64,000 nucleotides of DNA, taken from contig OZ244239.1 in NCBI GenBank assembly GCA_965217115.1, positions 896,001 through 960,000 on the forward strand, written 5' to 3'. The position numbers and the translations under genes are program-made. Below the pieces are notes generated by a model. The model was given only the letters and a program-made list of their open reading frames with translations. It was not told the origin of the DNA and did no database searches. The stretch is from Bdellovibrionales bacterium (GTDB taxonomy: Bacteria > Bdellovibrionota > Bdellovibrionia > Bdellovibrionales > CAYMLA01). Below, one piece after another: positions 1,361 to 25,009 of this stretch; position 1 is the first letter of the stretch, and each line of letters starts with the position of its first letter.

Positions 1361-3526
1361 ATGACAGCTTTTTTTTCTAGAGGTTTATTCAGCGTTTTCC
1401 TTATTCTTGGTCTTCAAAATGCAATCGCAACCGTCTCTATCTCTAGTATTCGTAACGCTTCCAACTATAGCCTGAGTAGTCGTGTCATTTACGGAGGAGT
1501 TGCTGGCCGATTTGATGCTTGCAACCAAGAAGACATCGACAATGGCACTGTCTGTGATAATTGTATTGGGCTAACGACATCGGCGGTGTGTAATCGAAAA
1601 CGAATCTACGATAATCTAGAGTTATCCATTACTATTTCATCCGACAGCAGAGATGTTAGTGGCGCCACAACAAAATTATTCTATGGCGATCAAGAGGTTG
1701 CCATTCCATCACCGGTCTCAGGCATCAACACTAATGACAGCGTCACTGTGAATATTCCATGGGGAAATATTTGCAACGCAGTACTGGGGACGTCTTCTTG
1801 TGACTCAAGTACCTATGAAGGTTTTAATAAAACTTTTACCCTTGGCTTTAGCAACGACGACAGCAGTACATTCACTGATTCCACCTCACTGCAAATCTTC
1901 TTACAACCATCTAATTCTGGGAGTAATAACGATGATTTCCAAAGCAGTGATCCGAATGATCGTATTTATGGCTTTTCTTCATTTAAAATTTTTCCTGGTG
2001 ATGAAAAAGTTTACTTAGATGACAGTTCTAATGATGGACTTACTGTCTCTGCTAATTTCCCAAGTACTAAATACCAACCCGTCAAATTCACCGCCCTACG
2101 CCTGTTCTTTGAGGAAGGAACTGATTTCACCAGAGTAACTCCTGCTTCATCTTTTGTAGATTTTGAACTTATCGATCCTGACTCTCTCTTATTCAAAACT
2201 TCTTTCGCTGAAGGACTTAAAAACGGTCAGCAATATGTTTTTCGCGCTGCCAGTGTGGACACTGCTCGTAACGTGACTCTTTTTTTTCCTGATAGTTACT
2301 TAAATCTCAACGACCATTCAGCCACACCTAACCCTGTCTACGGTCTACTCGATGGCAATACCAATTGCTTTATTGCCTCGGCCACTTTCGGTTCTAAATG
2401 GTCTCCCGAGGTTCAAACCTTTAGAGATTTTCGTAATCGCTTCCTTCACCCCTACAGCTGGGGACAGAAGTTCACTCGGTTTTATTACAACTACAGCCCT
2501 TTCTGGGCTAAGAAAATTCAAGAAAACTCTACCCTAAAAACCCTGGCACAACTTTTCCTATGGCCACTCTGGGCAGTTATTTCTCTTTTGCTTCATGGCA
2601 AACTCGGGCTGCTTCTCATTTGTTCTCTACTTTTTCTTATCACTTCATTCACATATTATAGAAGACGGAAAAAAAAACTCTCTTTGTCGTCAAATAGATA
2701 TACTCTCAATATCTTACTTATAATATCATCTCTCTCCTTTCCCCAGCCTTCCTTTAGTTTAGAAGAACAAGATTATCGTAAAATCGAAGTGACATCTTCA
2801 CAAAAACTCATTCCTCAGTCGGGCGATGATTACGAGCTTATTCGCCATCCCCACGCTAAAAAAGGTCTCAAACGTATAACAAAGAAGGGAATTTATCTTT
2901 ACCATGTTGATACTTCCAGTAATGACACCTCTGGTTCTTTTAAAATGGGCTTCACTGACATTCCAAAAATATCTTCAACCAATTCTCAAGACACGATCAA
3001 TTTTTCCGATGTTTATGGGTCGGGTCCAATCAATACTTTCTACGGAGATTATGAATGGAAAAATCTTGTCAGTACTTTCGGTTTTAAAATTGGCACAGGT
3101 CTGTCCATAAGTTTTGGGAATGGGCAGATTCAAGATAACTCAGGTCAACTCGTCTCCTCTAAAGAAAAATTTCAGCTATGGATGATTCCTCTGGATGTGG
3201 GCCTTAATTGGCGATGGGAACTTTTTAAAAAACAAATGTTTGTTCCTTATTTTTATGGTGGTTTCTCAGCAATTTTGCTTATGGAAACAAGGGATGATAA
3301 AAATATTTTAGATTCAAAGTTTGCCTATTCCCTTGCGGGAGTCAGCGCAGGGGGCATTGCACTTCGTTTAGATAGTTTAGACCCAAGTTCTACTCTTATC
3401 CTAGATAGAGATTACGGAATCAACTCCATGTTCCTTGTTGCAGAATATCGCATTCAGCAGGGAATACTTAAGGATTTGGATTTTACAACCAACTCTCTGA
3501 ATGTCGGAATCATCGTCGATTTCTAA
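1361..3526 (+). CDS. Secreted FN3-like / CFI-box-CTERM protein fused to a C-terminal outer-membrane beta-barrel
   Basis: Signal peptide; GLKNGQQYVFRAASVD (FN3-like); CFIASATFGS...FRDFRNRFL...FYYNYSP (CFI-box-CTERM); TM helix plus RRRKKK; beta-strand C-terminus ending in Phe. Confidence 0.7.
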   Translation: MTAFFSRGLFSVFLILGLQNAIATVSISSIRNASNYSLSSRVIYGGVAGRFDACNQEDIDNGTVCDNCIGLTTSAVCNRKRIYDNLELSITISSDSRDVSGATTKLFYGDQEVAIPSPVSGINTNDSVTVNIPWGNICNAVLGTSSCDSSTYEGFNKTFTLGFSNDDSSTFTDSTSLQIFLQPSNSGSNNDDFQSSDPNDRIYGFSSFKIFPGDEKVYLDDSSNDGLTVSANFPSTKYQPVKFTALRLFFEEGTDFTRVTPASSFVDFELIDPDSLLFKTSFAEGLKNGQQYVFRAASVDTARNVTLFFPDSYLNLNDHSATPNPVYGLLDGNTNCFIASATFGSKWSPEVQTFRDFRNRFLHPYSWGQKFTRFYYNYSPFWAKKIQENSTLKTLAQLFLWPLWAVISLLLHGKLGLLLICSLLFLITSFTYYRRRKKKLSLSSNRYTLNILLIISSLSFPQPSFSLEEQDYRKIEVTSSQKLIPQSGDDYELIRHPHAKKGLKRITKKGIYLYHVDTSSNDTSGSFKMGFTDIPKISSTNSQDTINFSDVYGSGPINTFYGDYEWKNLVSTFGFKIGTGLSISFGNGQIQDNSGQLVSSKEKFQLWMIPLDVGLNWRWELFKKQMFVPYFYGGFSAILLMETRDDKNILDSKFAYSLAGVSAGGIALRLDSLDPSSTLILDRDYGINSMFLVAEYRIQQGILKDLDFTTNSLNVGIIVDF

Positions 3527-3560
3527 TTGAACACAGTGTAACATAAGAGGTCTGGTTAAA

Positions 3561-4358
3561 ATGTTACGTGATTCCTCCCACAAACAACGAGTTCGCTTGC
3601 TTGTCGCCTATGACGGAACTCCCTTTCAAGGATGGCAGAAGCAACCCTCAGGTAAACCAACGGTGCAAGGAAAACTCGAAAAAGCACTCTCACAGATTTT
3701 TGACGAGCCCATTATTCTTCAGGGTTCAGGGAGAACCGACTCTGGGGTCCATGCCATCGGCCAAACTGCCCATTTCGATACCTTTAAAGACCCCAGGCAA
3801 TACAGTCTACTCTACTCCCTTGAGAGTATGACGCCCAAAGAGATCACTATCCGAAAGACGCAACTGGCTCCATCTACTTTTCACGCCAGAGGCTCGGCTA
3901 TAAATAAAATTTATAAATATTTTATTCTCACTCGACCTGTGCCAAGCCCATTTCACCACAACCACATGTTTTGGAGCCGCCAACCACTGAATATTGATTT
4001 CCTCAACCAGGCCAGCCAGTTTCTTATCGGTCGAATGGATTTTAAATGCTTTCAGAGCGCTGGAACTTCTGTGGTCACAACCACACGGACCATACACACC
4101 GCTCATTGGAAAATACTCCCTGAAAACAGTATCTTAGAGTTTACCATCTCAGGCAGTGGTTTTCTCAAACAAATGGTTAGGAGCATTATTGGAACCCTTT
4201 TGGATATGTACTTTCAAGGACTAGACCCTGAGCATATGAAGAAGGTCATCTTGTCCCAGGATCGAAGAATGGCTGGAAGGACGGCACACCCCCATGGACT
4301 TTATCTTTACCGAGTTAATTACCCAAAGATACTTGACAATAAGTGCCTGCAATTTTAA
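3561..4358 (+). CDS. truA: tRNA pseudouridine(38-40) synthase
   Basis: AYDGTPFQGWQ, GSGRTDSGVHA, FLKQMVR. Confidence 0.97.
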   Translation: MLRDSSHKQRVRLLVAYDGTPFQGWQKQPSGKPTVQGKLEKALSQIFDEPIILQGSGRTDSGVHAIGQTAHFDTFKDPRQYSLLYSLESMTPKEITIRKTQLAPSTFHARGSAINKIYKYFILTRPVPSPFHHNHMFWSRQPLNIDFLNQASQFLIGRMDFKCFQSAGTSVVTTTRTIHTAHWKILPENSILEFTISGSGFLKQMVRSIIGTLLDMYFQGLDPEHMKKVILSQDRRMAGRTAHPHGLYLYRVNYPKILDNKCLQF

Positions 4359-16412: not shown

Positions 16413-17483
16413 TCAGATCAAGAGCTCTGGACGTCCTTCATATTTAGACGTCAATTGACCACAGGCTGCATAAATATCTCTACCCATGGTTTTACGTAAA
16501 AGAACATGAACTCCATTGTCCATTAATTCCTCGCGAAAGCGTTCCACCTGCCCATTGCTCGGTCGAACATAATCAGCATCCTCATGCTCATTAAAGGGAA
16601 TTATGTTCACCTTGCAGGGAATTGATTTAGCTATTTCAGCTAAACGTCTAGCGTCAGCAAGAGAGTCTGTCACTCCTTTAAGTAATACATACTCAACAGT
16701 CACCTTGTCCTTTGTGATTCTTGCGTGTTTTCGACAGGCCTCTAACAATTGTTCAATGGAGTGCTTTTTATTGATCGGCATAATCTCAGAACGAACGGCG
16801 TTGGAGCTACCATTGAGTGAAACAGCCAAACGCACTCTGGCTTGAGTGACCAATGGAATTTGCTCCACCAGACCAGAAGTTGATACTGTGATCTTCTTTC
16901 TTGATATATTCATCCCCCAAGGAGAGTGTAAAACTTCAATCGCTTTAAATACAGCTTCGGGATTATCAAGTGGCTCCCCCATTCCCATAAAAACAATATT
17001 CGTAATACGCTGACCCTCTTCTATAAGATTAGAAGCCCCAACAAACTGCCCGACAATTTCTCTGGCACTTAACCGTTTCTTTAGTTTTCTTTTGCCCGTA
17101 AAACAAAACTTACAACCAAGATTACAACCAACCTCCGATGACACACACAAAGTCAAACGCCCATCAGAAGGAATTAAAACAGCCTCGACCGTCATTGCTA
17201 CTTGACGATCATCAATCACTTCGCTGACATCAAAAAGAAACTTCTGTGTCCCATCCACACTGATTTTATGTTCCACAACTTTAGGCAAAGAAAAATTTAG
17301 CAACTGAGGCAACTCTTCGCGAAATTTTTTTGAAAGGTTCGTCATTTGCTCAACGTCAGTCACTCCTTTTTCATAAACCCATTTAAAAATCTGCTGAGCA
17401 CGAAACTTGGCCTTACCCAAAATCTCCAATCGACTTTGTAAATCATCCAAACTCAAATCATAAAAATAACTCTTTTCCTTCAA
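16413..17483 (-). CDS. rlmN: 23S rRNA m2A2503 / tRNA methyltransferase RlmN
   Basis: CNLGCKFC radical-SAM motif, FMGMGEP, AACGQL. Confidence 0.97.
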   Translation of the reverse strand: MKEKSYFYDLSLDDLQSRLEILGKAKFRAQQIFKWVYEKGVTDVEQMTNLSKKFREELPQLLNFSLPKVVEHKISVDGTQKFLFDVSEVIDDRQVAMTVEAVLIPSDGRLTLCVSSEVGCNLGCKFCFTGKRKLKKRLSAREIVGQFVGASNLIEEGQRITNIVFMGMGEPLDNPEAVFKAIEVLHSPWGMNISRKKITVSTSGLVEQIPLVTQARVRLAVSLNGSSNAVRSEIMPINKKHSIEQLLEACRKHARITKDKVTVEYVLLKGVTDSLADARRLAEIAKSIPCKVNIIPFNEHEDADYVRPSNGQVERFREELMDNGVHVLLRKTMGRDIYAACGQLTSKYEGRPELLI

Positions 17484-17648
17484 TCAGCCCTCCACCAAAG
17501 CCCTCTCCTTCTACCACAAACACCAAAATATCTCACCAAAACCCCCTTTAATAATCCATTCTAATCATTTTTTAAGAATTTATTTCACACCCCCCTCCGT
17601 TATTCCCTCCGTTATTCCCCCCGTTGTTCCCAGTCCCCGCAAGTTTTC

Positions 17649-17775
17649 AAATAAATGGTTCAAAGGGTCTTTCATCTTCAAGCGAGTTCGGATTGGTGCG
17701 CCGCTCGCAAAGCGAGCCGCGCTGCCGAACGAATGTCTGAGCTTGAAGATGGAAGACCCTTTGAACCATTTATTT
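17649..17775. repeat. Nested palindromic element, copy 1 (127 nt, 35-bp arms)
   Basis: Arms 17649-17683 and 17741-17775 pair with a single G-T; inner stems gttcgg/ccgaac and gctcgc-aaa-gcgagc. Confidence 0.97.
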
Positions 17776-17839
17776 CAGACCCAGCTCCCCAAAACCCATG
17801 TTATAGAGAACCATCTTATACAATTCTACTGGGAGAAAT

Positions 17840-17914
17840 AAAGCCCTAGGTAAATAATCAGCCTCTAGCCGACAAGGCTAAGATTTGACGACGTACAAAA
17901 TAAATTATTCCATT
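17840..17914 (+). repeat. 75-bp direct repeat, copy A
   Basis: aaagccctaggtaaataatc...aaattattccatt; 74/75 identical to 19831-19905. Confidence 0.97.
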
Positions 17915-18779
17915 ATTCAAGTGAACGTAGACATTTGGCAACTTTTTTCATTTCTGAGCTTTCTGTAGATGATTTTGACTTAACAATATAAACATCTCTT
18001 TTGATGGGCTTAAAGCCACTTGGGAAATTTTTCTGATATAGCTTATAATCATCTTTAACAATTTGATTGTGAATTTTGGCAATAAAATTTGGAAGATAAA
18101 TAACACATAATCCACTCCTTGAAAGTTCTATTGCACTTTCGAGAGTATCAACTCTATGTTGAATTAAGCGTGGAAACTCATGCTCCGGCCAACCATCAAG
18201 CCCTTTGACACCTGACGGAGCCCCTTTTATTGGTTGTATGGGAGCTACAAAAGGTATTTCCTGAAAATTTAAATTATTAAAAGAACCTTTTGTTCCGTAA
18301 ATTGACATTTGAACTTTTGAAATTTTTAAAAAATCTACCCCAGGAGTTGGGATAGGCTCATATGTTATTCCAAAATCTACTATCTTTTTTGCAACAAATT
18401 CTTCTAATTCTCCCTGTCTGGTTTCATAGAGATCTAATTTATAAGTTTCCAACAATGGCTTCAACTTCTTTAAAAAATACGTGCTAAAGACCTCAAATGT
18501 TGCTATTTTAATATTACTTGATTCAGCTTTTTTATTTATTACACTTAAATCTTCTATTTGATTGATGATGTTCTTAGCTCTCTTATAAATAACTACTGCT
18601 TCATTGGAGGGCACTATACCTCGGCCTTCGGGTAAAAATAGTTCAAAACCCAGTTCTTCTTCTAATACTTTCAGTGACTTAGACAGCGCACCATGGCTCA
18701 TTCCTATTAGATCAGCGGCACTTCTTAACCCACCAGTTTCAACAACCGTACAAAATTGCTTAAGCCTATTGGTCTCCAT
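17913..18779 (-). CDS. LysR family transcriptional regulator
   Basis: METNRLKQFCTVVETGGLRSAADLIGMSHGALSKSLKVLEEELG helix-turn-helix; start corrected to ATG 18779. Confidence 0.93.
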   Translation of the reverse strand: METNRLKQFCTVVETGGLRSAADLIGMSHGALSKSLKVLEEELGFELFLPEGRGIVPSNEAVVIYKRAKNIINQIEDLSVINKKAESSNIKIATFEVFSTYFLKKLKPLLETYKLDLYETRQGELEEFVAKKIVDFGITYEPIPTPGVDFLKISKVQMSIYGTKGSFNNLNFQEIPFVAPIQPIKGAPSGVKGLDGWPEHEFPRLIQHRVDTLESAIELSRSGLCVIYLPNFIAKIHNQIVKDDYKLYQKNFPSGFKPIKRDVYIVKSKSSTESSEMKKVAKCLRSLE

Positions 18780-18883
18780 ATAGAAACAGATATATAAAAT
18801 AATTCGATATACGGCAACAATAAAAATGAATATATTCCGACCTTCTTGAGAAATCAATAAAGGTCTAAAACCGAGGAGGAGAT

Positions 18884-19249
18884 ATGAAAACAATAATTTT
18901 ATTATGTTTATTGATAGGGTCACAGCATATTTTTGCTGCCAGTTGTGACATTGAAAAAGGGCACTACTTAATATTAAAGGTTGATCAACTAAAGGTAAAA
19001 GTAGATTCTTGTGACCCAACTCCAGGGTGGGGCCAGGGAAGAGCTCATTTTGCTACATTTGATAAAAATGATTTAGCTCGAGCAAAGCGAGAACTACTTA
19101 CCAAGCATCACCCCCTGATACCTGACCGTTGTCAATTACTAGGAACAGGTGATATTGAAATTATAAGTAATCGTAGTCTTTGTAGCTTCTCAGGGGTAGA
19201 CGAAGCAACAGCAAATTTCACCGTAAGATATAAGTGTCACTTATTCTGA
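18884..19249 (+). CDS. Small secreted Cys-containing hypothetical protein, divergent from lysR
   Basis: RBS GAGGAG; MKTIILLCLLIGSQHIFA signal peptide. Confidence 0.8.
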   Translation: MKTIILLCLLIGSQHIFAASCDIEKGHYLILKVDQLKVKVDSCDPTPGWGQGRAHFATFDKNDLARAKRELLTKHHPLIPDRCQLLGTGDIEIISNRSLCSFSGVDEATANFTVRYKCHLF

Positions 19250-19330
19250 TTTAATGTAACTGTTCCTTTAATTCTGTGCAGAGGACGGTATGCTAATAAA
19301 TGTATTTAATAGAGTTAAGGGAAGTGAGAC

Positions 19331-19840
19331 ATGTTATCAAATTTTAAGTTAATTGAATTTTCATCAATAATGTTACTTATTCTAGGTAGTCTCTCTTTTG
19401 CAGGAGTTAAAAACGAAGAGGTTATCTATAAAAAATTGATTCTCAAAGCCAGTAAAGAACAGATTTGGTCTACATTGACTGATCAAAATGAACTGGGCAA
19501 ATGGTGGAATAAAGGAGTCAGACTTGAACCATATGTCGGTGGACAATTCTATGAACCTTGGGGAGAGGGGCAATTAGCCACTGGGAAAGTAGTAGATTTA
19601 AAATTTCAAAAGTTTATAAAGTTTACTTGGAAAGAGAAGTATTGGAATTCTTCTGAAAGTACAGTTTGTACATTTTTTCTAGAGAAAGTAGAAAAAGGGA
19701 CGGTCTTAAAAATTCATCATTCTGGCTGGGAGTCTATTAAAGAATTAAGTAAAAGAAAAAAACTAATTGAAGGATTTCAGAAGGGCTGGGACCTTCTTTT
19801 ACCAAAATTGAAGAAATATGTTGAATCGGAAAAGCCCTAG
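19331..19840 (+). CDS. SRPBCC/AHSA1-like domain protein with signal peptide
   Basis: ASKEQIWSTLTD...KWW, GTVLKIHHSGW, GWDLLLPKLKKYVE. Confidence 0.88.
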   Translation: MLSNFKLIEFSSIMLLILGSLSFAGVKNEEVIYKKLILKASKEQIWSTLTDQNELGKWWNKGVRLEPYVGGQFYEPWGEGQLATGKVVDLKFQKFIKFTWKEKYWNSSESTVCTFFLEKVEKGTVLKIHHSGWESIKELSKRKKLIEGFQKGWDLLLPKLKKYVESEKP

Positions 19841-19905
19841 GTAAATAATCAGGCTCTAGCCGACAAGGCTAAGATTTGACGACGTACAAAATAAATTATT
19901 CCATT
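19831..19905 (+). repeat. 75-bp direct repeat, copy B
   Basis: Matches 17840-17914 with one substitution. Confidence 0.97.
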
Positions 19906-19917
19906 GGATTATCAGAT

Positions 19918-20508
19918 ATGAATACTAAAAAAGAAAGTTGGAATGATTATTACAAAAAAATAAGCAGAAAACCTCCTAGCCTATTACTTAAGGTGGCCTT
20001 AAATGAGGTTAAGCAGATTGGTATTGCTTATGACTTAGGGGCTGGAGCAGGAGTTGACTCAAAATTTCTAGCCAAACAAGGTTGGAATGTTTTTGCTGTA
20101 GATAAAGAACCGTCATCTATTAATTTTATTAGGAAAATCAAAACAGTGAGAGGTGATATTAAACCTGTTTTATCTAACTTTGAAGAATTAACTCTTCAAA
20201 AAGCCCATCTTATATTTGCATCATTTTCTTTACCGTTTTGTAGCCCGTGTAAATTTCCATTTTTATGGAACAAAATACAATCATCACTGGTCGGCGGGGG
20301 CATATTGGCTGGAACATTGCTTGGAAATAACGATAGTTGGGTCAAAGATTCTAACGGAGGAATGACATTTCAAACAAATAAACAGATTCTCGATTTATTT
20401 GAAGATTATGAAATTTTATATTTCGATGAACAGGAAGAGGATCGTCCAACGGCTCTAGGAAAGCAAAAGCACTGGCATGTATACAGTTTTGTAGTCCGAA
20501 AACACTAG
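19918..20508 (+). CDS. Class I SAM-dependent methyltransferase (TehB-like)
   Basis: AYDLGAGAGVDS SAM motif, WNVFAVD; ATG 19918 preferred because the track's TTG start lies inside the repeat. Confidence 0.88.
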   Translation: MNTKKESWNDYYKKISRKPPSLLLKVALNEVKQIGIAYDLGAGAGVDSKFLAKQGWNVFAVDKEPSSINFIRKIKTVRGDIKPVLSNFEELTLQKAHLIFASFSLPFCSPCKFPFLWNKIQSSLVGGGILAGTLLGNNDSWVKDSNGGMTFQTNKQILDLFEDYEILYFDEQEEDRPTALGKQKHWHVYSFVVRKH

Positions 20509-20618
20509 GTTCTGAGGCGAATTAAAAATCACAAAGCTCAGGCTTTTAAGATGCCTCCCGTAAAGAAGATGAAAGCCCCTTTGAACCAACCTTATCTACC
20601 AAAAGTTAAGTCCTCTCT
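20504..20618 (+). repeat. Tail module (CTAGGTTCTGAGG...) plus right half of the palindrome plus rfaE1-end copy
   Basis: Nearly identical to 23449-23559. Confidence 0.95.
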
Positions 20619-20681
20619 TTAACCCCCGCTGTTCCCCCCGTTGTTCCCAATCCCCGCTGTTCCCAGTCCACGCAAGTTTTC

Positions 20682-20800
20682 AAATAAATAGTTCAAAGGG
20701 TCTTTTATCTTCAAGCGAGTTCGGATTGGTGCGCCGCTCGCAAAGCGAGCTGCGCTGCCGAACGAATGTCTGAGCTTGAAGATGAAAGCCCCTTTGAACC
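20682..20800. repeat. Nested palindromic element, copy 2
   Basis: Same core as copy 1 with a few substitutions; shortened right arm followed by an rfaE1-end copy. Confidence 0.96.
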
Positions 20801-20858
20801 ACGCCTTATTTGCCAAAAGTTAAGTTCTCTATTTAGTCCCCAACCTCTCAGCCAAAGC

Positions 20859-20950
20859 CTCTTTTTAAAACTCTAAATTGACAATCTACGCAAGGGGTTA
20901 GACACCTCAAAAACTCTCAGGCATCGATAAATTGATGTCTAAGCTATTTT
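20859..20950 (+). repeat. Leader module, copy 1
   Basis: ctctttttaaaactctaaattgacaatct...gtctaagctatttt aligns with 21809-21901. Confidence 0.85.
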
Positions 20951-21060
20951 CTCCATGGCATAGAATATGCTGTCTAAAGTCTTGAAATTAATGGTATCAG
21001 TCTGATTTAGGAGAATTAAATGAAAAAATTATTATTTTTAACAACTATTATTTTGAGGGT

Positions 21061-21339
21061 ATGCCTGTGAGATTAGTAAGAACTATCACTATCGCTTTAA
21101 GTATTTTTTTGAGCTTTGCTGTGTTAGCAAGCGACTATGAGTGTTCAGGATTATTTATGAAGTGCTCTGAAGGAGAAGAAATACATCACCTTACTAGATT
21201 GTCAGAATCTGAATGTAGTGGATCATATGAGGGATGTAGGCAGTACTTAAAAAACGAATTAAAGAACTTACGGAAAGTAAAAAAAACTGAAGTGTTTTGC
21301 TATTTCGATGAATACCGTAACGAAGCTATCTGTTTATAA
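21061..21339 (+). CDS. Small secreted protein with six Cys (true start may be GTG 21067)
   Basis: Hydrophobic leader ending VLA; GAGGG upstream of the GTG. Confidence 0.7.
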   Translation: MPVRLVRTITIALSIFLSFAVLASDYECSGLFMKCSEGEEIHHLTRLSESECSGSYEGCRQYLKNELKNLRKVKKTEVFCYFDEYRNEAICL

Positions 21340-21483
21340 CTAGATTAGTAAAGATGGTTTAAGATGTAAAATACACTCAGCAGGAATACTCTCTGCAAAG
21401 ATAAGAGTTCTTTGCAGCAGCTTGAACAAAGAAATTTCTTTTTCACCTAAGGTTTCTTCTAAAACATGATCCAAAATATACGA

Positions 21484-21600
21484 GCCAAACGAATGCCTGA
21501 GCTTAAAGATGAAAGCCCCTTTGAACCAACCTTATCTACCAAAAGTTAAGTTCTCTATTTAGTCCTTAAGATCCCACCAAACAAGGCACACACCCCGCCC
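21484..21600 (+). repeat. Right half of the palindrome plus the longest (~70 bp) degenerate copy of the rfaE1 3' end
   Basis: ccttatctaccaaaagttaagttctctatttagtccttaag...aacaaggcacacacccc aligns with 23967-24035. Confidence 0.92.
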
Positions 21601-21635
21601 CTTGCCCCCGCTGTTCCCAGTCCCCGCAAGTTTTC

Positions 21636-21755
21636 AAATAAATGGTTCAAAGGGTCTTTTATCTTCAAGCGAGTTCGGATTGGTGCGCCGCTCGCAAAGC
21701 GAGCCGCGCTGCCGAACGAATGTCTGAGCTTGAAGATGGAAGACCCTTTGAACCA
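21636..21755. repeat. Nested palindromic element, copy 3
   Basis: Core identical to copy 1. Confidence 0.96.
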
Positions 21756-21808
21756 GCCTTACCTACCAAAAGTTAAGTCCTCTCTTTAGTCTGCTGCCCC
21801 AGAAAAAA

Positions 21809-21901
21809 CTCTTTTTAAAACTCTAAACTGACAATCTGTGCAAGGGATTAGACACCTCAGAAAAGCTCAGTTACCGATAGATTTATGTCTGAGCTGTTTT
21901 T
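21809..21901 (+). repeat. Leader module, copy 2
   Basis: Aligns with 20859-20950 with scattered substitutions. Confidence 0.85.
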
Positions 21902-21955
21902 TCGATGAGCGGTAAATAATTGATCCCCAGCCAACAGGACTAGAATATCATAGCG

Positions 21956-21979
21956 AGGCCACTGGAAAGTGGTCTTTTT
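21956..21979 (+). terminator. Candidate intrinsic terminator with GNRA loop
   Basis: aggccact-GGAA-agtggtct followed by a T run. Confidence 0.5.
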
Positions 21980-22156
21980 CCTTTGGGGCCGGAAAACGTC
22001 ACTTCTAAAAGCAATCCCCGAAAAAATTGAAAAATTTACATCACTCGATGATTTTCCCCTTAAAAGTGCACGAATCAGTTATAATAATTCAAACAATATC
22101 AATCAAATTTAAGAGAATTTGTCCCCCAAGGAAATAGAACGATATCAAGAGGAGAA

Positions 22157-22567
22157 ATGATGAAAAAAATATTAATTGGTTTAACTCTTTTAATGTCCGT
22201 TACAGTTTTTGCTGAGAAAAGGATTATCACCTGCTCAAATACGGCTATCACAGTTCATTCGGAGAATATTATCGGAGGGGAATTCACTGTGACGCCTTCT
22301 AAAGGAATTCAGCATAAACTAACTATCAAATTGGAAGGAGGAGCAGATTCAATTTTTTGGGCTACTTCAGACACTTCTCAAGAACAACTTTTTGCTGGAG
22401 GCATCATGCATAATGCCAGTAGCTTAACCATGTTTCCTGGCGGTAATAAAGCAATGTTGTCCTTCGAAGGCGATATTTATCCTTTGGTGTGTGATAAAAA
22501 ATGGAGTACTGAGTTGAGTAAATGGCTTGAAGAATGGCACCAAAGGGAGAAAAGGTGGTCTTGGTAG
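22157..22567 (+). CDS. Secreted hypothetical protein
   Basis: RBS GAGGAG; MKKILIGLTLLMSVTVFA signal peptide; two Cys. Confidence 0.82.
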   Translation: MMKKILIGLTLLMSVTVFAEKRIITCSNTAITVHSENIIGGEFTVTPSKGIQHKLTIKLEGGADSIFWATSDTSQEQLFAGGIMHNASSLTMFPGGNKAMLSFEGDIYPLVCDKKWSTELSKWLEEWHQREKRWSW

Positions 22568-22597
22568 TAAACTCATTAACTAGACAGATTTTTTTTC

Positions 22598-22636
22598 ACT
22601 AGGTTCTGAGGCTAATTAAAAATCACAAAACTCAGG
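22598..22636 (+). repeat. Partial tail module
   Basis: actaggttctgaggctaattaaaaatcacaaaactcagg; two differences from the copies at 20504 and 23449. Confidence 0.92.
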
Positions 22637-22690
22637 AACTCTAAACGAATCGAACAAATAAACCATTAGTTTATCGAGGATAGAAAGACT

Positions 22691-23449
22691 TTGAGATTAC
22701 TTTTAATATTGTTTTTTTCTGCATTTATATTTAGTGATACCTCTTGGGCTTCTTCTTCATGTGCAGACTTTCTCGGGAGTTCATTCAGAAGTGAAAGTCG
22801 TGTTATTACGACCGATACAATAGTTAAAAAAAGTGATGCTCCCATCTTAATGAAAGATATTTTAGGTTTTGTATATTACACTAAATTAAATTGGAAAAAT
22901 TTTATATCTAAACATCGAAGAAAGGTTCGTTTATATGATACTGATTGGAGCAGAGAGAATTTCCTTAAGGAACAATTACTCTTACCTAAAGACTTAAAGC
23001 CTGATGAGCGAAAGATTATCTTAAAAATAAAGAGAGAGACATCACCGGAATCAAAACATTATAAAAAGGCGCAAGAATTAGAAGGGACTCCAGATATTAT
23101 TGGAGTTGAGTCTGCTATTTTGAAAATTAAACTTAAAAGCAACGACATTTATTATGCTGAACACACTTCAAATAGAGAGACATCAATAAAAGTTCAAGAT
23201 ATTCTTTCAGCATTATCTGGAATAGGAAGAAAAAAGAATTTCTCGCCAAATGATATTGCAGAATTACACTTTTTCCATAATCATCCAGGAATAACTCAAC
23301 CTATCTCAAAGCCTGATGTGGGAGTTGCCAAGAAATTTGTAAAAATTTTTGGTGATAATAATCCCGATTTTAAATTTCACATGTATGCAATTAGTTTTGA
23401 AAATAGTCTTCGTCCAACACTTATCTTTCATGCTGGGTTTCAGAATTGA
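22691..23449 (+). CDS. Secreted protein with a C-terminal JAB/MPN (JAMM-like) motif
   Basis: Signal peptide ending SWA; upstream Glu (GVESAIL) and HFFHNHPGITQPISKPD. Confidence 0.7.
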   Translation: MRLLLILFFSAFIFSDTSWASSSCADFLGSSFRSESRVITTDTIVKKSDAPILMKDILGFVYYTKLNWKNFISKHRRKVRLYDTDWSRENFLKEQLLLPKDLKPDERKIILKIKRETSPESKHYKKAQELEGTPDIIGVESAILKIKLKSNDIYYAEHTSNRETSIKVQDILSALSGIGRKKNFSPNDIAELHFFHNHPGITQPISKPDVGVAKKFVKIFGDNNPDFKFHMYAISFENSLRPTLIFHAGFQN

Positions 23450-23559
23450 CTAGGTTCTGAGGCGAATTAAAAATCACAAAGCTCAGGCTTTTAAGATGCC
23501 TCCCGCAAAGAAGATGAAAGCCCCCTTTGAACCAACCTTATCTACCAAAAGTTAAGTCC
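23449..23559 (+). repeat. Tail module plus half palindrome plus rfaE1-end copy
   Basis: Near-identical to 20504-20613. Confidence 0.95.
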
Positions 23560-23630
23560 GTTGTTCCCCCGCTGTTCCCCATTGTCCCCCCCCCTGTTCC
23601 CCCCGCTGTTCCCAGTCCCCGCAAGTTTTC

Positions 23631-23750
23631 AAATAAATGGTTCAAAGGGTCTTTTATCTTCAAGCGAGTTCGGATTGGTGCGCCGCTCGCAAAGCGAGCC
23701 GCGCTGCCGAACGAATGTCTGAGCTTGAAGATGGAAGACCCTTTGAACCA
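23631..23750. repeat. Nested palindromic element, copy 4
   Basis: Core identical to copy 3. Confidence 0.96.
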
Positions 23751-23844
23751 GCCTTATCTACCAAAAGTTAAGTCCTCTATATAGGCCTTAAGCCCCCCAC
23801 CGAACACCCCATACCTTCGCTGTTCCCAGTCCACGCAAGTTTTC

Positions 23845-23965
23845 AAATAAAATGGTTCAAAGGGTCTTTCATCTTCAAGCGAGTTCGGATTGGTGCGCCG
23901 CTCGCAAAGCGAGCTGCGCTGCCGAACGAATGTCTGAGCTTGAAGATGGAAGACCCTTTGAACCA
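23845..23965. repeat. Nested palindromic element, copy 5, 3 nt downstream of the rfaE1 stop
   Basis: Same element; on the minus strand it is followed by a T-rich stretch, so it may also terminate rfaE1 transcription. Confidence 0.96.
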
Positions 23966-23968
23966 GCC

Positions 23969-25009
23969 TTATCTGCCAGAAGTTAAGTTCTCTATGTAGG
24001 CCTTAAGCCCCCCCCCCGAACAAGGTACACACCCCACCTTACCCACAACAAACCCCGCTGCAAAATTAGACAAAACACAGGAATCTAATAGTGACAATTG
24101 AGCTGCCTTTGCTAACGCTAAAGTTGCTACCACAGTATCCCCCGCCCCCGTCACATCAAAAACCTGACGGGCATAGGTGGGAACAATGTTCACTTGTTCT
24201 GCGCTGTAAAGAACCATTCCTTCACTTCCCCGAGTTAAAACCAATTCATCGGCGCCTATTTTATCACGAATTCTCTGTCCTAAATTTAAAATAGCCTGCT
24301 CATCTTGCCAACAACGATCAAAAGATTCTCCCAAAAGAGTTAAACTCTCCTCAAAATTGGGCTTAAATAGATTCGCCCCGCGATAAAAATCCAGGGGAGT
24401 CTCTCGATGGGGGTCAATTAAAACTTGCTTAGAAGATGACTTGGCAATGAGCAAAATTTCTTGAATCAAAGTCTCATTCAACAGTCCTTTGGCGTAATCC
24501 TGTAAAACAACCGCTTGGCACTGATCAATATTATCCTTGATCACTTGCAATATCTTCCTATGAACACTCTCACTGATATCCTGACGACGCTCATAATCAA
24601 CGCGCACAATGTGATTATGACCTGTCATAACTCGAGCTTTACGTGTCGTTGGACGGCAGGAGTCTTCCACAAGATATTGACCTTCAATTCCCTCTCTCTC
24701 TAAAATATCACGTAACTTATCAGCTCCTTGGTCCTTTCCAATCACTGAAACAAGAATAGGATAACCCCCCAAACCGACAATATTATGAGCTACATTGGCC
24801 GCCATCCCCAGACGAGTATCTTCTTTTTTAACCTCTAGAACTGGCACTGGAGCTTCTGGGCTAATTCTGCGCACATCACCAGTGATATATTCATCCAACC
24901 CACAATCACCTACCACTAAGATTCTCTTATCTGACAGAGTTTCAACTTGTTGTAAGAGCTTCGGTAAAAGTTCTTTACCTGGAATAGAGCTTTGAAAGGG
25001 CTTTAACAT
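23969..25009 (-). CDS. rfaE1: D-glycero-beta-D-manno-heptose-7-phosphate kinase (RfaE domain I / HldA)
   Basis: RISPEAPVPV, QDYAKG, DVTGAGDT PfkB motif. Confidence 0.93.
   Translation of the reverse strand: MLKPFQSSIPGKELLPKLLQQVETLSDKRILVVGDCGLDEYITGDVRRISPEAPVPVLEVKKEDTRLGMAANVAHNIVGLGGYPILVSVIGKDQGADKLRDILEREGIEGQYLVEDSCRPTTRKARVMTGHNHIVRVDYERRQDISESVHRKILQVIKDNIDQCQAVVLQDYAKGLLNETLIQEILLIAKSSSKQVLIDPHRETPLDFYRGANLFKPNFEESLTLLGESFDRCWQDEQAILNLGQRIRDKIGADELVLTRGSEGMVLYSAEQVNIVPTYARQVFDVTGAGDTVVATLALAKAAQLSLLDSCVLSNFAAGFVVGKVGCVPCSGGGLKAYIENLTSGR

Follow-up and report, generated by a model that had tools for sequence, protein, structure and literature searches.

The array between rlmN and rfaE1

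On contig OZ244239.1 of a Bdellovibrionales bacterium, a 6.5-kb insert lies between rlmN and rfaE1, in which conserved hairpin copies alternate with unrelated accessory genes. Five of the hairpins, each of ~150 nt, are near-identical, and three more are truncated. The insert also has repeated pieces of the rfaE1 3' end, seven cargo genes unrelated to each other, and leaders and tails that recur. Positions are those of the window, the whole 64-kb stretch of DNA that was analysed, and features are on the plus strand unless stated otherwise. The left anchor is rlmN (16413..17483, minus strand, Pfam Radical_SAM and RlmN_N) and the right anchor is the gene of a PfkB-family sugar kinase, rfaE1/hldA-like (23969..25009, minus strand, Pfam PfkB).

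On the rlmN side the array starts with linker A (17586..17640), a C-rich sequence with 11-mer repeats of the CCGYTGTTCCC type, followed by hairpin A (17641..17780, covariance-model match 17662-17760, 106 bits). This is the most perfect palindrome, and its 3' arm runs into the flank on the cargo side, with no gene-end copy. Two copies of a 75-nt repeat (D6; 17840..17914 and 19831..19905, 99% identical) then bracket a 1991-nt segment of three genes. These encode a LysR-type regulator (17913..18779, Pfam HTH_1 and LysR_substrate, start read from the sequence), whose gene alone among the cargo is on the minus strand, a 121-aa protein without a paralog in the genome (ORF 18884..19249), and an AHSA1/SRPBCC-family protein (19331..19840, PF08327). 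The gene of a TehB-like SAM methyltransferase (19876..20508, by Pfam) is followed by a CTAG tail (D4), a truncated hairpin with only the 3' arm and a short rfaE1-end copy (20495..20625, 98% identical to 23449-23559).

Linker B, hairpin B and an rfaE1-end copy come next (20626..20839, covariance-model match 20695-20793), and then the first copy of a leader (D5, 20854..20960) in which a -24/-12-type motif was read by eye, and the gene of a 92-aa Cys-rich protein (ORF 21061..21339). Behind it is a truncated hairpin that lacks everything before the 3' half of the core (nhmmer model positions 93-146), with the longest rfaE1-end copy (21484..21599). Linker C, hairpin C and another rfaE1-end copy (21600..21789, covariance-model match 21649-21747) lead to the second leader copy and a D6-like fragment, D7 (21804..21942, from the repeat scan), to the gene of a 136-aa protein (ORF 22157..22567) and to a tail without any hairpin part (22597..22636). 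The last cargo gene encodes a 252-aa protein with an HxHx7Sx2D, JAMM-like, motif (ORF 22691..23449), and it runs into a tail with a truncated hairpin, again only the 3' arm, and a very short gene-end copy (23449..23559). Linker D, the longest, precedes hairpin D and an rfaE1-end copy of ~70 nt (23560..23806, covariance-model match 23644-23742), and a short linker precedes hairpin E (23807..23976, covariance-model match 23859-23957). The 3' flank of hairpin E overlaps the last codons and the stop of rfaE1, the stop codon being 28 nt past the end of the core.

The recurring layout of hairpins and cargo that had been predicted was confirmed by a repeat scan, which found a 197-nt unit five times (at 17606, 20639, 21593, 23588 and 23803), a 48-nt unit of 3' arm and gene end in seven direct copies, the tail three times and the leader twice, besides the D6 pair. 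The local order is regular, a 48-nt unit, a 215-nt hairpin unit, a 48-nt unit and cargo. Arms of the array hairpins are 35 nt long and 97% complementary, and the palindrome, originally put at ~120 nt, is in fact about 140-150 nt. The pairwise identity of the five hairpins is 96-100% and the GC content of the scaffold 0.45-0.51, as compared to 0.30-0.39 for the cargo and 0.396 for the genome, so the near-identical scaffold and the more AT-rich cargo were described correctly, as was the strand of all cargo genes but lysR. The copies of the rfaE1 end are real, with varying lengths, and the three half palindromes are also there, but they are truncated at different points.

Pfam bore out the identities given to RlmN, LysR, SRPBCC, the methyltransferase and the rfaE1-like kinase. 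No Pfam family was found in a Pfam search of the 121-, 136- and 252-aa proteins, and the 92-aa protein had only a sub-threshold match. The N-termini of the 121-, 92- and 136-aa proteins look, by eye, like signal peptides, and the assignment of the 252-aa protein as JAB comes solely from the motif, read by eye in the translation. Compared within the genome, the cargo genes are singletons and mutually unrelated.

That the array is an assembly artefact, with repeats mis-joined or mis-counted, is hardly credible. Four short-read runs of one sample gave contigs that without exception end at the repeats and never cross the whole array, and a single contig linking hairpins B and C is ambiguous. Every unique cargo segment, however, was matched without mismatch, together with its entry into the flanking repeats, the cargo and the flanking genes have similar depth (19-25 and 25-37, respectively, in run X1), the host genome is one 2.17-Mb contig, and the architecture recurs at many loci.

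A hairpin family at gene ends

The array palindrome is one subfamily of an element of conserved structure that this genome carries ~73 times, at 19 loci (83 nhmmer matches, 73 of them non-overlapping), and each locus has its own stem variant. The stems covary strongly. Among 33 copies the stem was paired in 89.0% of cells, as compared to 67.4% in shuffles, none of 500 shuffles being as high, and in 38-52% in slid controls. There were 280 compensatory cells where shuffles gave 88.8, and 20 of 20 outer-stem pairs change on both sides. The core is conserved and bipartite with an internal loop, the bulges are asymmetric and conserved, and the variation lies in the stem while the apical core is kept. 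The element matches no Rfam family. Mismatches among related copies are G-T more often than A-C (35 as compared to 15), which suggests that one strand is the functional one. The hairpins stay 93-100% identical while the adjacent coding sequence diverges, and this would require gene conversion or strong constraint, both hypothetical here.

When 140 other Bdellovibrionales genomes were searched with a covariance model, 20 of them, from 9 of 13 families, had the element, with 1 to at least 29 copies. Most of those copies are solitary and stand beside housekeeping or tRNA genes, among them the 3' ends of tRNA-Ala and tRNA-Leu. A similar unit, with an AT-rich gene of an exported protein between hairpins, was seen in a genome of another family. 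In the present genome the 3' side of the hairpin normally adjoins the stop codon of a convergent gene, in one orientation; 15 of the 19 loci have the end of a convergent frame, of at least 150 codons, 10-60 nt past the core, as compared to 2.1% of random positions. The original prediction had named a genome-wide REP or MITE unrelated to gene boundaries as evidence against it. Half of this applies, as the repeat is indeed genome-wide, but its copies keep closely to the 3' ends of genes.

In 37 of 40 relatives there are rfaE1 homologs, which can be aligned as far as residues 340-343 of 346. At 4 of 11 loci from relatives, rlmN is the neighbour of rfaE1 in the same orientation, at a distance of 180-1000 nt, and no hairpin is found between the two genes, which implies that the array is an insertion.

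We propose that the hairpin natively serves as a terminator or insulator where genes end, functioning in single-stranded form in the direction of the cargo. It is conceivable that this is its only role, that the hairpin takes no part in recombination and that the arrays are ordinary tandem duplications and horizontal insertions at a tolerant spot between convergent genes. Such an explanation would agree with the 3'-end position of the hairpin, both here and in other genomes, with the C-rich, G-poor tracts upstream of hairpins genome-wide (mean C 33%, G 16%), with the paralogous cargo of other arrays, and with leaders and tails that are ordinary shared regulatory modules. We nevertheless find it unlikely; the copy number is far above that of most relatives, there are tandem hairpin arrays free of ORFs that repeat every 170-275 nt, breakpoints lie within the hairpin, and hairpin loci are exactly where unrelated cargo is concentrated.

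Junctions, cargo and recombinases

Direct copies of one and the same hairpin arm, the 3' arm, flank every cargo block, which resembles the aftermath of integration at an attachment site. The duplicated hairpin stretch differs, however, being ~24, 85 and 60 nt around three cargo blocks. Truncated copies in the array start at model positions 93 and ~115, and elsewhere in the genome they cover positions 62-123, 18-88 and 72-131. The longest rfaE1-end copy is 85 nt at 85% identity, and the joint between gene end and linker of two units lies at an 8-nt word, CCCCGCTG, that is also present in rfaE1.

The searched recombinase families gave no match inside the window, in agreement with the claim that no integrase or transposase is found there. 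Y1, IS110, DDE_Tnp_1, DDE_3, TnpB and RAYT were not found anywhere in the genome. Its only tyrosine recombinases are XerC-like, XerD-like and one phage-type integrase, and none of the three reaches the cut-off for integron integrases. Both attC boxes, RYYYAAC and GTTRRRY, were present together in 0 of 57 full copies genome-wide, as had been predicted for the array, whose copies carry GTTAAGT alone.

The phage-type integrase, an orphan elsewhere in the genome, could be taken as a trace of elements that carried an integrase and were serially integrated into the rfaE1 3' end, the integrase being lost later so that the remaining attachment-site repeats could only be mobilised in cis. The seven direct 48-nt copies do include the rfaE1 end, and gene-end pseudo-copies reach ~85 nt. 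This is still a highly improbable origin. Gene-end copies with internal hairpins occur at just 2 of the 15 loci that have two or more copies, their extents vary, a joint lies at microhomology, and three of the supposed elements would be pure hairpin units of 215 nt. Furthermore, the integrase family shows no link with hairpin-bearing genomes, and no tRNA gene was found in 4.5 kb around the integrase.

The cargo shows a clear direction. From a map of the hairpin loci, 31 of 38 ORFs taken as cargo are co-oriented with their own hairpins, a bias that random insertion would not produce and that needs selection or a directional mechanism. One such mechanism would be an undescribed structure-specific system like that of attC, in which the hairpin is the recombination site, the arrays are true cassette arrays and the enzyme, the XerC/XerD-like pair or an unrecognised one, acts in trans. 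The conservation of structure and not of sequence, the asymmetric bulges, the strand preference, the single array orientation, the 3'-arm copies around each cargo block and the hairpin-flanked gene in the other family all point in this direction. We regard it as improbable all the same, with junction positions that vary by unit and irregular truncations. The stem variants are specific to their loci, which local copying would predict and exchange between loci would not, and there is neither an integron integrase nor attC boxes. Elsewhere in the genome many arrays contain tandem paralogs (46-96% identity), untidy partial copies also occur, and the mostly solitary copies in other genomes do not suggest cassettes.

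The TehB-like methyltransferase is patchy in the order; of 383 other genomes 18 have one, with an identity of at most 39%. The only cargo gene with a traceable relative is that of the 252-aa protein, which has 82.6% DNA identity over 656 nt with a gene from a bacterium of another family, the homology beginning ~98 nt into the ORF and ending at the stop codon. The neighbours of this relative are pgpA-like and cinA/recA-like (names read by eye from translations), and no hairpin was found around it. Taken together, the imprecise junctions, the 8-nt microhomology, the 75-nt repeat and the hairpin-free cargo relative argue against integron-like site-specific capture. The cassette-like layout of the original prediction and the 6.5-kb insertion into a conserved junction stand, but precise capture or exchange in trans does not fit heterogeneous junctions, with microhomology and plain tandem duplications, and a cargo relative without hairpins. 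Homologous recombination, the other route that had been offered, fits the evidence. The conserved non-coding scaffold is likewise made of real repeats, but in part it is ordinary sequence; leader and tail are separate genome-wide repeat families common to genes outside hairpin loci, and the leader family has ~15 copies, some at hairpin-free loci.

The explanation that we favour, with about even confidence, is that the locus is a repeat-driven recombination hot spot and gene nursery, and not a site-specific cassette system. The palindrome is a local subfamily of a Bdellovibrionales-wide hairpin that normally stands single against a convergent stop codon or tRNA gene end, and that has multiplied in this genome. 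Behind rfaE1 the hairpin may have been duplicated in tandem with pieces of the rfaE1 3' end, and unrelated accessory genes, mostly for exported proteins, would then have been inserted between the copies, each with promoter-leader and tail modules common to other genes of the genome. The insertions probably arose by homologous or illegitimate recombination that depended on homology or microhomology, and could have been single-crossover insertions of circles or break repair at a fragile palindrome, each duplicating a different length of the hairpin 3' arm. A dedicated recombinase would not be necessary. Against this explanation stand the orientation bias of the cargo, the regular order of the array with its 3'-arm copies, and the near-identity of hairpins beside coding sequence that diverges.

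Comparison with known systems

Like CALIN arrays with attC sites, the present array has one orientation, with genes followed by structured imperfect palindromes whose asymmetrically bulged structure is better conserved than their sequence, and no integrase nearby. It differs by the missing boxes and integron integrase, by imprecise cassette boundaries, and by hairpin copies that are mostly solitary at housekeeping gene ends. The conserved apical core and variable stem are the reverse of what is seen in attC.

REP/BIME, REPIN-RAYT, ERIC and Correia elements are interspersed intergenic imperfect palindromes, often behind genes and sometimes in tandem clusters. Their copy number varies widely between relatives, and they can affect mRNA ends and act as hot spots for recombination or insertion. 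The present element is also an interspersed palindrome behind genes, sometimes in tandem and of variable copy number, but it shares no sequence with them and its genome has no RAYT. It is longer, with a conserved bipartite internal-loop core, strictly oriented against a convergent stop codon and interleaved with accessory genes.

Palindrome-stimulated rearrangement is a general process and not a system, in which long inverted repeats are cleaved as hairpins or cruciforms and copied with strand slippage. The array is reminiscent of it in its half-palindrome remnants, its joints at microhomology, the duplication of units in tandem and the variable numbers of short linker repeats, but alone this process leaves the orientation bias of the cargo and the long-term conservation of the hairpin unexplained.

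The dRS3/NTS repeats of Neisseria are hundreds of oriented hairpin repeats clustered round particular genes in intergenic mosaics, and they shape genome dynamics via recombination and transformation (Chenal et al. 2025, PMC11893778). With ~30 nt and another sequence, the NTS hairpin differs from ours, and its partner Ssn, a single-strand nuclease, is a small GIY-YIG protein (PMC11893778). No Ssn nuclease was found in the present genome, where the sole GIY-YIG match is in a 655-aa frame that, from its length, looks UvrC-like. What the two have in common is the arrangement of oriented, clustered hairpin repeats in intergenic mosaics.

The array between rlmN and rfaE1

The genome is a single contig of 2.17 Mb with 39.6% GC. 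In the window, the array is enclosed by rlmN (16413–17483, minus strand) to the left and a PfkB-family kinase gene of the rfaE1/hldA type (23969–25009, minus strand) to the right, an interval of 6.5 kb. In the repeat scan a 197-nt unit came up five times and a 48-nt unit, made up of the hairpin 3' arm and the end of rfaE1, seven times; there are also three CTAG tails, two leaders, and a pair of 75-nt repeats (17840–17914 and 19831–19905) that are 99% identical to each other. The five hairpins, A–E, are 96–100% identical, and the scaffold has a GC content of 0.45–0.51 as compared to 0.30–0.39 in the cargo, the seven accessory genes. Pfam assigns three of them, as a LysR regulator, a TehB-like methyltransferase and an AHSA1/SRPBCC protein. 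For the proteins of 121, 136 and 252 aa it has no family, and for that of 92 aa a sub-threshold match only; in the translation of the 252-aa gene, an HxHx7Sx2D motif can be seen by eye. The seven proteins are not related to one another, and none of them has a paralog anywhere in the genome. The layout in the original prediction, a near-identical scaffold carrying unrelated and more AT-rich cargo between rlmN and rfaE1, is borne out by the repeat scan, the Pfam assignments and the GC figures.

The 3' end of the rfaE1 ORF contains a run of 10 C (24008–24017), translated on the minus strand into consecutive glycines. Slippage at this run would alter the C-terminus of the protein, and the rfaE1-end copies further upstream carry degraded versions of the tract.

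In 4 of 11 loci of relatives, a co-oriented rlmN is found about 180–1000 nt after rfaE1, and the same glutamate-dehydrogenase gene is located upstream in five of the relatives' loci. No hairpins were found in the rfaE1–rlmN gaps of these relatives, the nearest rfaE1 homolog among the genomes searched being about 52% identical. This comparison indicates that the hairpin array is an insertion.

To judge the assembly, short-read contigs from four runs of one sample were used. They matched all unique segments without mismatch, at a depth like that of the flanks; they stop within repeats, and the array is not spanned by any of them. A joint between 20690 and 21645, from hairpin B to hairpin C, is present in one contig, which skips the 92-aa gene. 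Since 60 nt fit both sides of this joint, the contig gives no evidence of excision, and in the run that contains it the skipped gene has about equal depth.

A hairpin family at the 3' ends of genes

A profile made from the five local hairpins gave 83 matches in the genome; 73 remain when overlaps are removed, spread over 19 loci. The hairpin belongs to a repeat family and is not private to the rfaE1 site. The copies follow a common plan: a C-rich 5' tract closed by a conserved CCGYTGTTCCCAGTC-type word, an outer stem with a locus-specific sequence, a two-part conserved core, GAGTTCGGMTTGG ... CCAAACGNATGTCTGAG, that flanks a short apical stem, and a 3' flank of the TTTGCCMAAATCAA type. Searches with the exact core pattern gave matches in 19 metagenome stretches and in 16 stretches belonging to 8 Bdellovibrionales assemblies, and 0 matches in viral contigs.

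Covariation was assessed in an alignment of 18 copies from this genome and 15 from other genomes. In the proposed structure 89.0% of the cells are paired, as compared to 67.4% after shuffling, and none of 500 shuffles reached 89.0%; the compensatory cells number 280 against 88.8 in the shuffles, and slid controls of the structure are 38–52% paired. All 20 of the 20 outer-stem pairs have changes on both sides. Of 140 further genomes of the order, 20 have the element according to a covariance model built from these 33 copies; these 20 span 9 of 13 families, and the copy numbers per genome, which are lower bounds, range from 1 to at least 29. With Rfam 15, no match in the window reached the gathering score, and the best match below it was to an unrelated snoRNA (19.7 bits, 40 needed). 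As far as literature searches on Bdellovibrio repeats and on Bdellovibrionota integrons show, the element has not been described previously.

The mismatches in the outer stem are more often G-T than A-C, 35 as compared to 15, and 17 as compared to 3 within this genome. This excess is a weak hint that the folded strand may be the one read in the direction of the cargo. The orientation of the hairpins in the genome has no replication-strand bias. A coding function was considered and rejected, as one copy has an open frame but the loop lengths vary among the copies and the frame is lost. A quadruplex/i-motif pattern was likewise dismissed as the defining feature of the linker, being present in only 12 of 60 copies. 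A simple terminator scan misses the big hairpins; it calls the small hairpins in the leader and in the 75-nt repeats. In the array at genome positions 427511–430395, a hairpin of about 35 nt is nested in the apical loop of the hairpins.

A convergent frame of 150 codons or more terminates 10–60 nt past the core at 15 of the 19 loci, mostly at 40–50 nt, which is where the conserved 3' flank ends. Only 2.1% of random positions pass the same test. The stop codon of rfaE1 itself is located 28 nt past the core, and rfaE1 is an essentially complete gene, since homologs can be aligned with it to residue 340–343 of 346. In other genomes, a convergent ORF ends within 60 nt for 10 of 30 pattern matches, one hairpin copy each adjoins the 3' end of a tRNA-Ala and a tRNA-Leu gene, and one complete genome has two consecutive housekeeping-type genes that are each followed by a hairpin copy in the same orientation. 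These positions show that the home of the element is the 3' end of a gene.

Other parts of the scaffold are dispersed independently. The leader is present at 20854–20960 in the window and in about 15 copies over the genome (for instance at genome positions 845365, 828934, 773097 and 576272); most copies are at hairpin-free loci, and the leader extends into the 5' UTR of genes for exported proteins. In the copy at 20854–20960, a TGGCAT-N5-ATGCT word at 20940–20960 resembling a −24/−12 element of the sigma-54 type was noted by eye. The CTAG tail is a dispersed genome repeat, and so is a word of 31–38 nt upstream of the 252-aa gene (22637–22673), which has at least 12 other sites in the genome with 87–96% identity and may be the promoter or operator of a regulon. 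The leader, the tail and this word are shared expression modules, outside the hairpin proper.

Build-up of the array and origin of its cargo

The junctions of the array are not uniform. The duplicated hairpin stretch is about 24 nt around the block from lysR to the methyltransferase gene, about 85 nt around the 92-aa gene, and about 60 nt around the block of the 136- and 252-aa genes. The truncated hairpins of the array start at position 93 and at about position 115 of the hairpin profile, and those at other loci span positions 62–123, 18–88 and 72–131. The rfaE1-end copies are genuine, with lengths from a few nt to about 85 nt. In the two units where a long gene-end copy passes into the following linker, the two are joined at CCCCGCTG, a word also present at the matching place in the rfaE1 coding sequence; this is characteristic of tandem duplication at microhomology. 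Of the 15 loci that have at least two copies, only 2 have gene-end copies beside internal hairpins. The 1991-nt segment from lysR to the SRPBCC gene is flanked by the 75-nt direct repeat, which fits the expected residue of a single crossover or a duplication.

Other arrays plainly arose by tandem duplication: their cargo genes are paralogs with 46%, 75% and up to 96% identity, and one of them carries six tandem fragments of the apical hairpin. Each locus also has its own variant of the hairpin stem, so that local copying fits better than traffic between loci. Taken together, the duplicated stretches, the gene-end copies, the 75-nt repeat and the tandem arrays point to homologous and illegitimate recombination, and not to a site-specific enzyme. 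The best-supported mechanism for the locus is duplication and insertion driven by repeats, at a conserved hairpin element that marks the 3' ends of genes. The original prediction was partly right: the locus resembles a cassette array and carries no recombinase itself. An integron-like, site-specific system is not supported by the evidence.

Two of the other arrays have further peculiarities. At genome positions 476230–476520, six tandem repeats of about 60 nt, each consisting of a C/T-rich spacer and a mini-hairpin that resembles the element's apical stem, are found upstream of a full hairpin, and beside them the intrinsic terminator of a cargo gene is fused to half a hairpin core. At 427511–430395 there are two cargo paralogs whose leaders are 98% identical and whose central coding parts cannot be aligned as DNA.

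There are also signs of a more directed process. The majority of the ORFs taken as cargo, 31 of 38, share orientation with their hairpins, the 48-nt unit, a 215-nt hairpin unit and the cargo alternate regularly within the rlmN–rfaE1 array, and hairpins and leaders keep 93–98% identity while the intervening coding sequence diverges or gives way to another. With these signs, and with the motif occurring in another family, structure-specific recombination stays a minority reading. The hairpin would then, as a folded single strand, serve as recombination site for a Bdellovibrionales cassette system not described so far, analogous to integrons and served by the Xer-like recombinases or by an enzyme of no known family, which we consider improbable. 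If true, the system would place genes for exported proteins behind housekeeping genes, always in one orientation. In a genome of another family, an AT-rich gene for an exported protein, followed by a co-oriented hairpin, is located between two housekeeping genes that each have their own abutting hairpin. A small version of the array was observed in genome G005, from another family (2347–4090 of stretch L082), where two convergent housekeeping-type genes enclose an AT-rich exported-protein gene (0.35 GC) and four hairpins, some of them partial.

The 252-aa protein has 1 relative among 5.8 billion clustered proteins, and in a search of 383 other genomes this relative was located in one, from another family of the order. 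It is a protein of 310 aa, encoded on contig 5 of genome G077 (L086, 9341–10273), where the genome GC is 34%. The DNA identity to the 252-aa gene is 82.6% over 656 nt, to be compared with only about 50% between the rfaE1 proteins of different families. The neighbours of the relative are pgpA-like and cinA/recA-like genes, as named by eye from their translations, and there is no hairpin or notable repeat around it. The homology extends from about 98 nt inside the ORF to the stop codon; the 252-aa gene thus has a local tail and a local signal-peptide end. Such identity to a hairpin-free relative indicates a recent horizontal transfer of this cargo gene between families, by a route for which the hairpin is not needed. 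The methyltransferase is patchy across the order, found in 18 of the 383 other genomes with at most 39% identity.

Significance and relation to known systems

Predatory Bdellovibrio-like bacteria rely on large and fast-changing sets of exported proteins. The locus, and about a dozen similar ones in the genome, show where genes for such proteins duplicate, diversify and enter. The strong covariation, the strict stop-codon rule and the patchy multi-copy spread over the order make the hairpin a good candidate for a new functional nucleic-acid motif, and the locus offers a clean test case of whether structured repeats alone can arrange accessory genes into integron-like arrays.

The genome has three tyrosine recombinases (PF00589): one XerC-like, one XerD-like and one of phage type. 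The best score against the integron integrase model TIGR02249 is 120.7 bits, as compared to a cut-off of 265, and the same protein scores higher as XerC and XerD; none of the three is near the cut-off. Xer-dependent modules are bordered by a 28-bp XerC/XerD binding site (dif-like). The phage-type integrase was rejected as partner of the hairpin, as its homologs occur in 85 genomes out of 140, and two genomes with the hairpin lack them. DDE_Tnp_1, DDE_3 and TnpB have no match in the genome, the sole rve match is a protein of 200 aa, and there is also a resolvase fragment. Not near any of the hairpin loci, at about 1868.4–1869.6 kb (L079, 1367–2600), a reverse transcriptase gene (315 aa) and an HTH gene (104 aa) overlap, a pair with a retron- or defence-like look.

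The attC arrangement, with complementary R'' (RYYYAAC) and R' (GTTRRRY) boxes at the hairpin base, is absent, as noted in the original prediction: none of 57 full copies has both boxes, and GTTRRRY alone is found in 6. Cassettes of integrons and CALINs have a boundary at a fixed position, whereas here the duplicated stretches measure about 24, 85 and 60 nt and the hairpins are truncated at varying points. REP/REPIN-RAYT systems need a RAYT gene, and this genome, which is 99.4% complete, has no match to the Y1/RAYT transposase family PF01797. Repeats targeted by IS110/IS1111 elements similarly need an IS110-family transposase, and no PF02371 match is found in the genome. Oriented hairpin repeats around genes have been linked to small GIY-YIG single-strand nucleases, Ssn (PMC11893778). 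The Ssn and SRM/NTS system has a small single-domain GIY-YIG protein (cd10448), typically flanked by the repeats, whereas the single PF01541 match in this genome is in a frame of 655 aa, which we read as probably UvrC-like from its length. A MITE, finally, is defined by terminal inverted repeats, target-site duplications and a cognate transposase. The element described here is a palindrome in its entirety, and its ends are not sharply defined.
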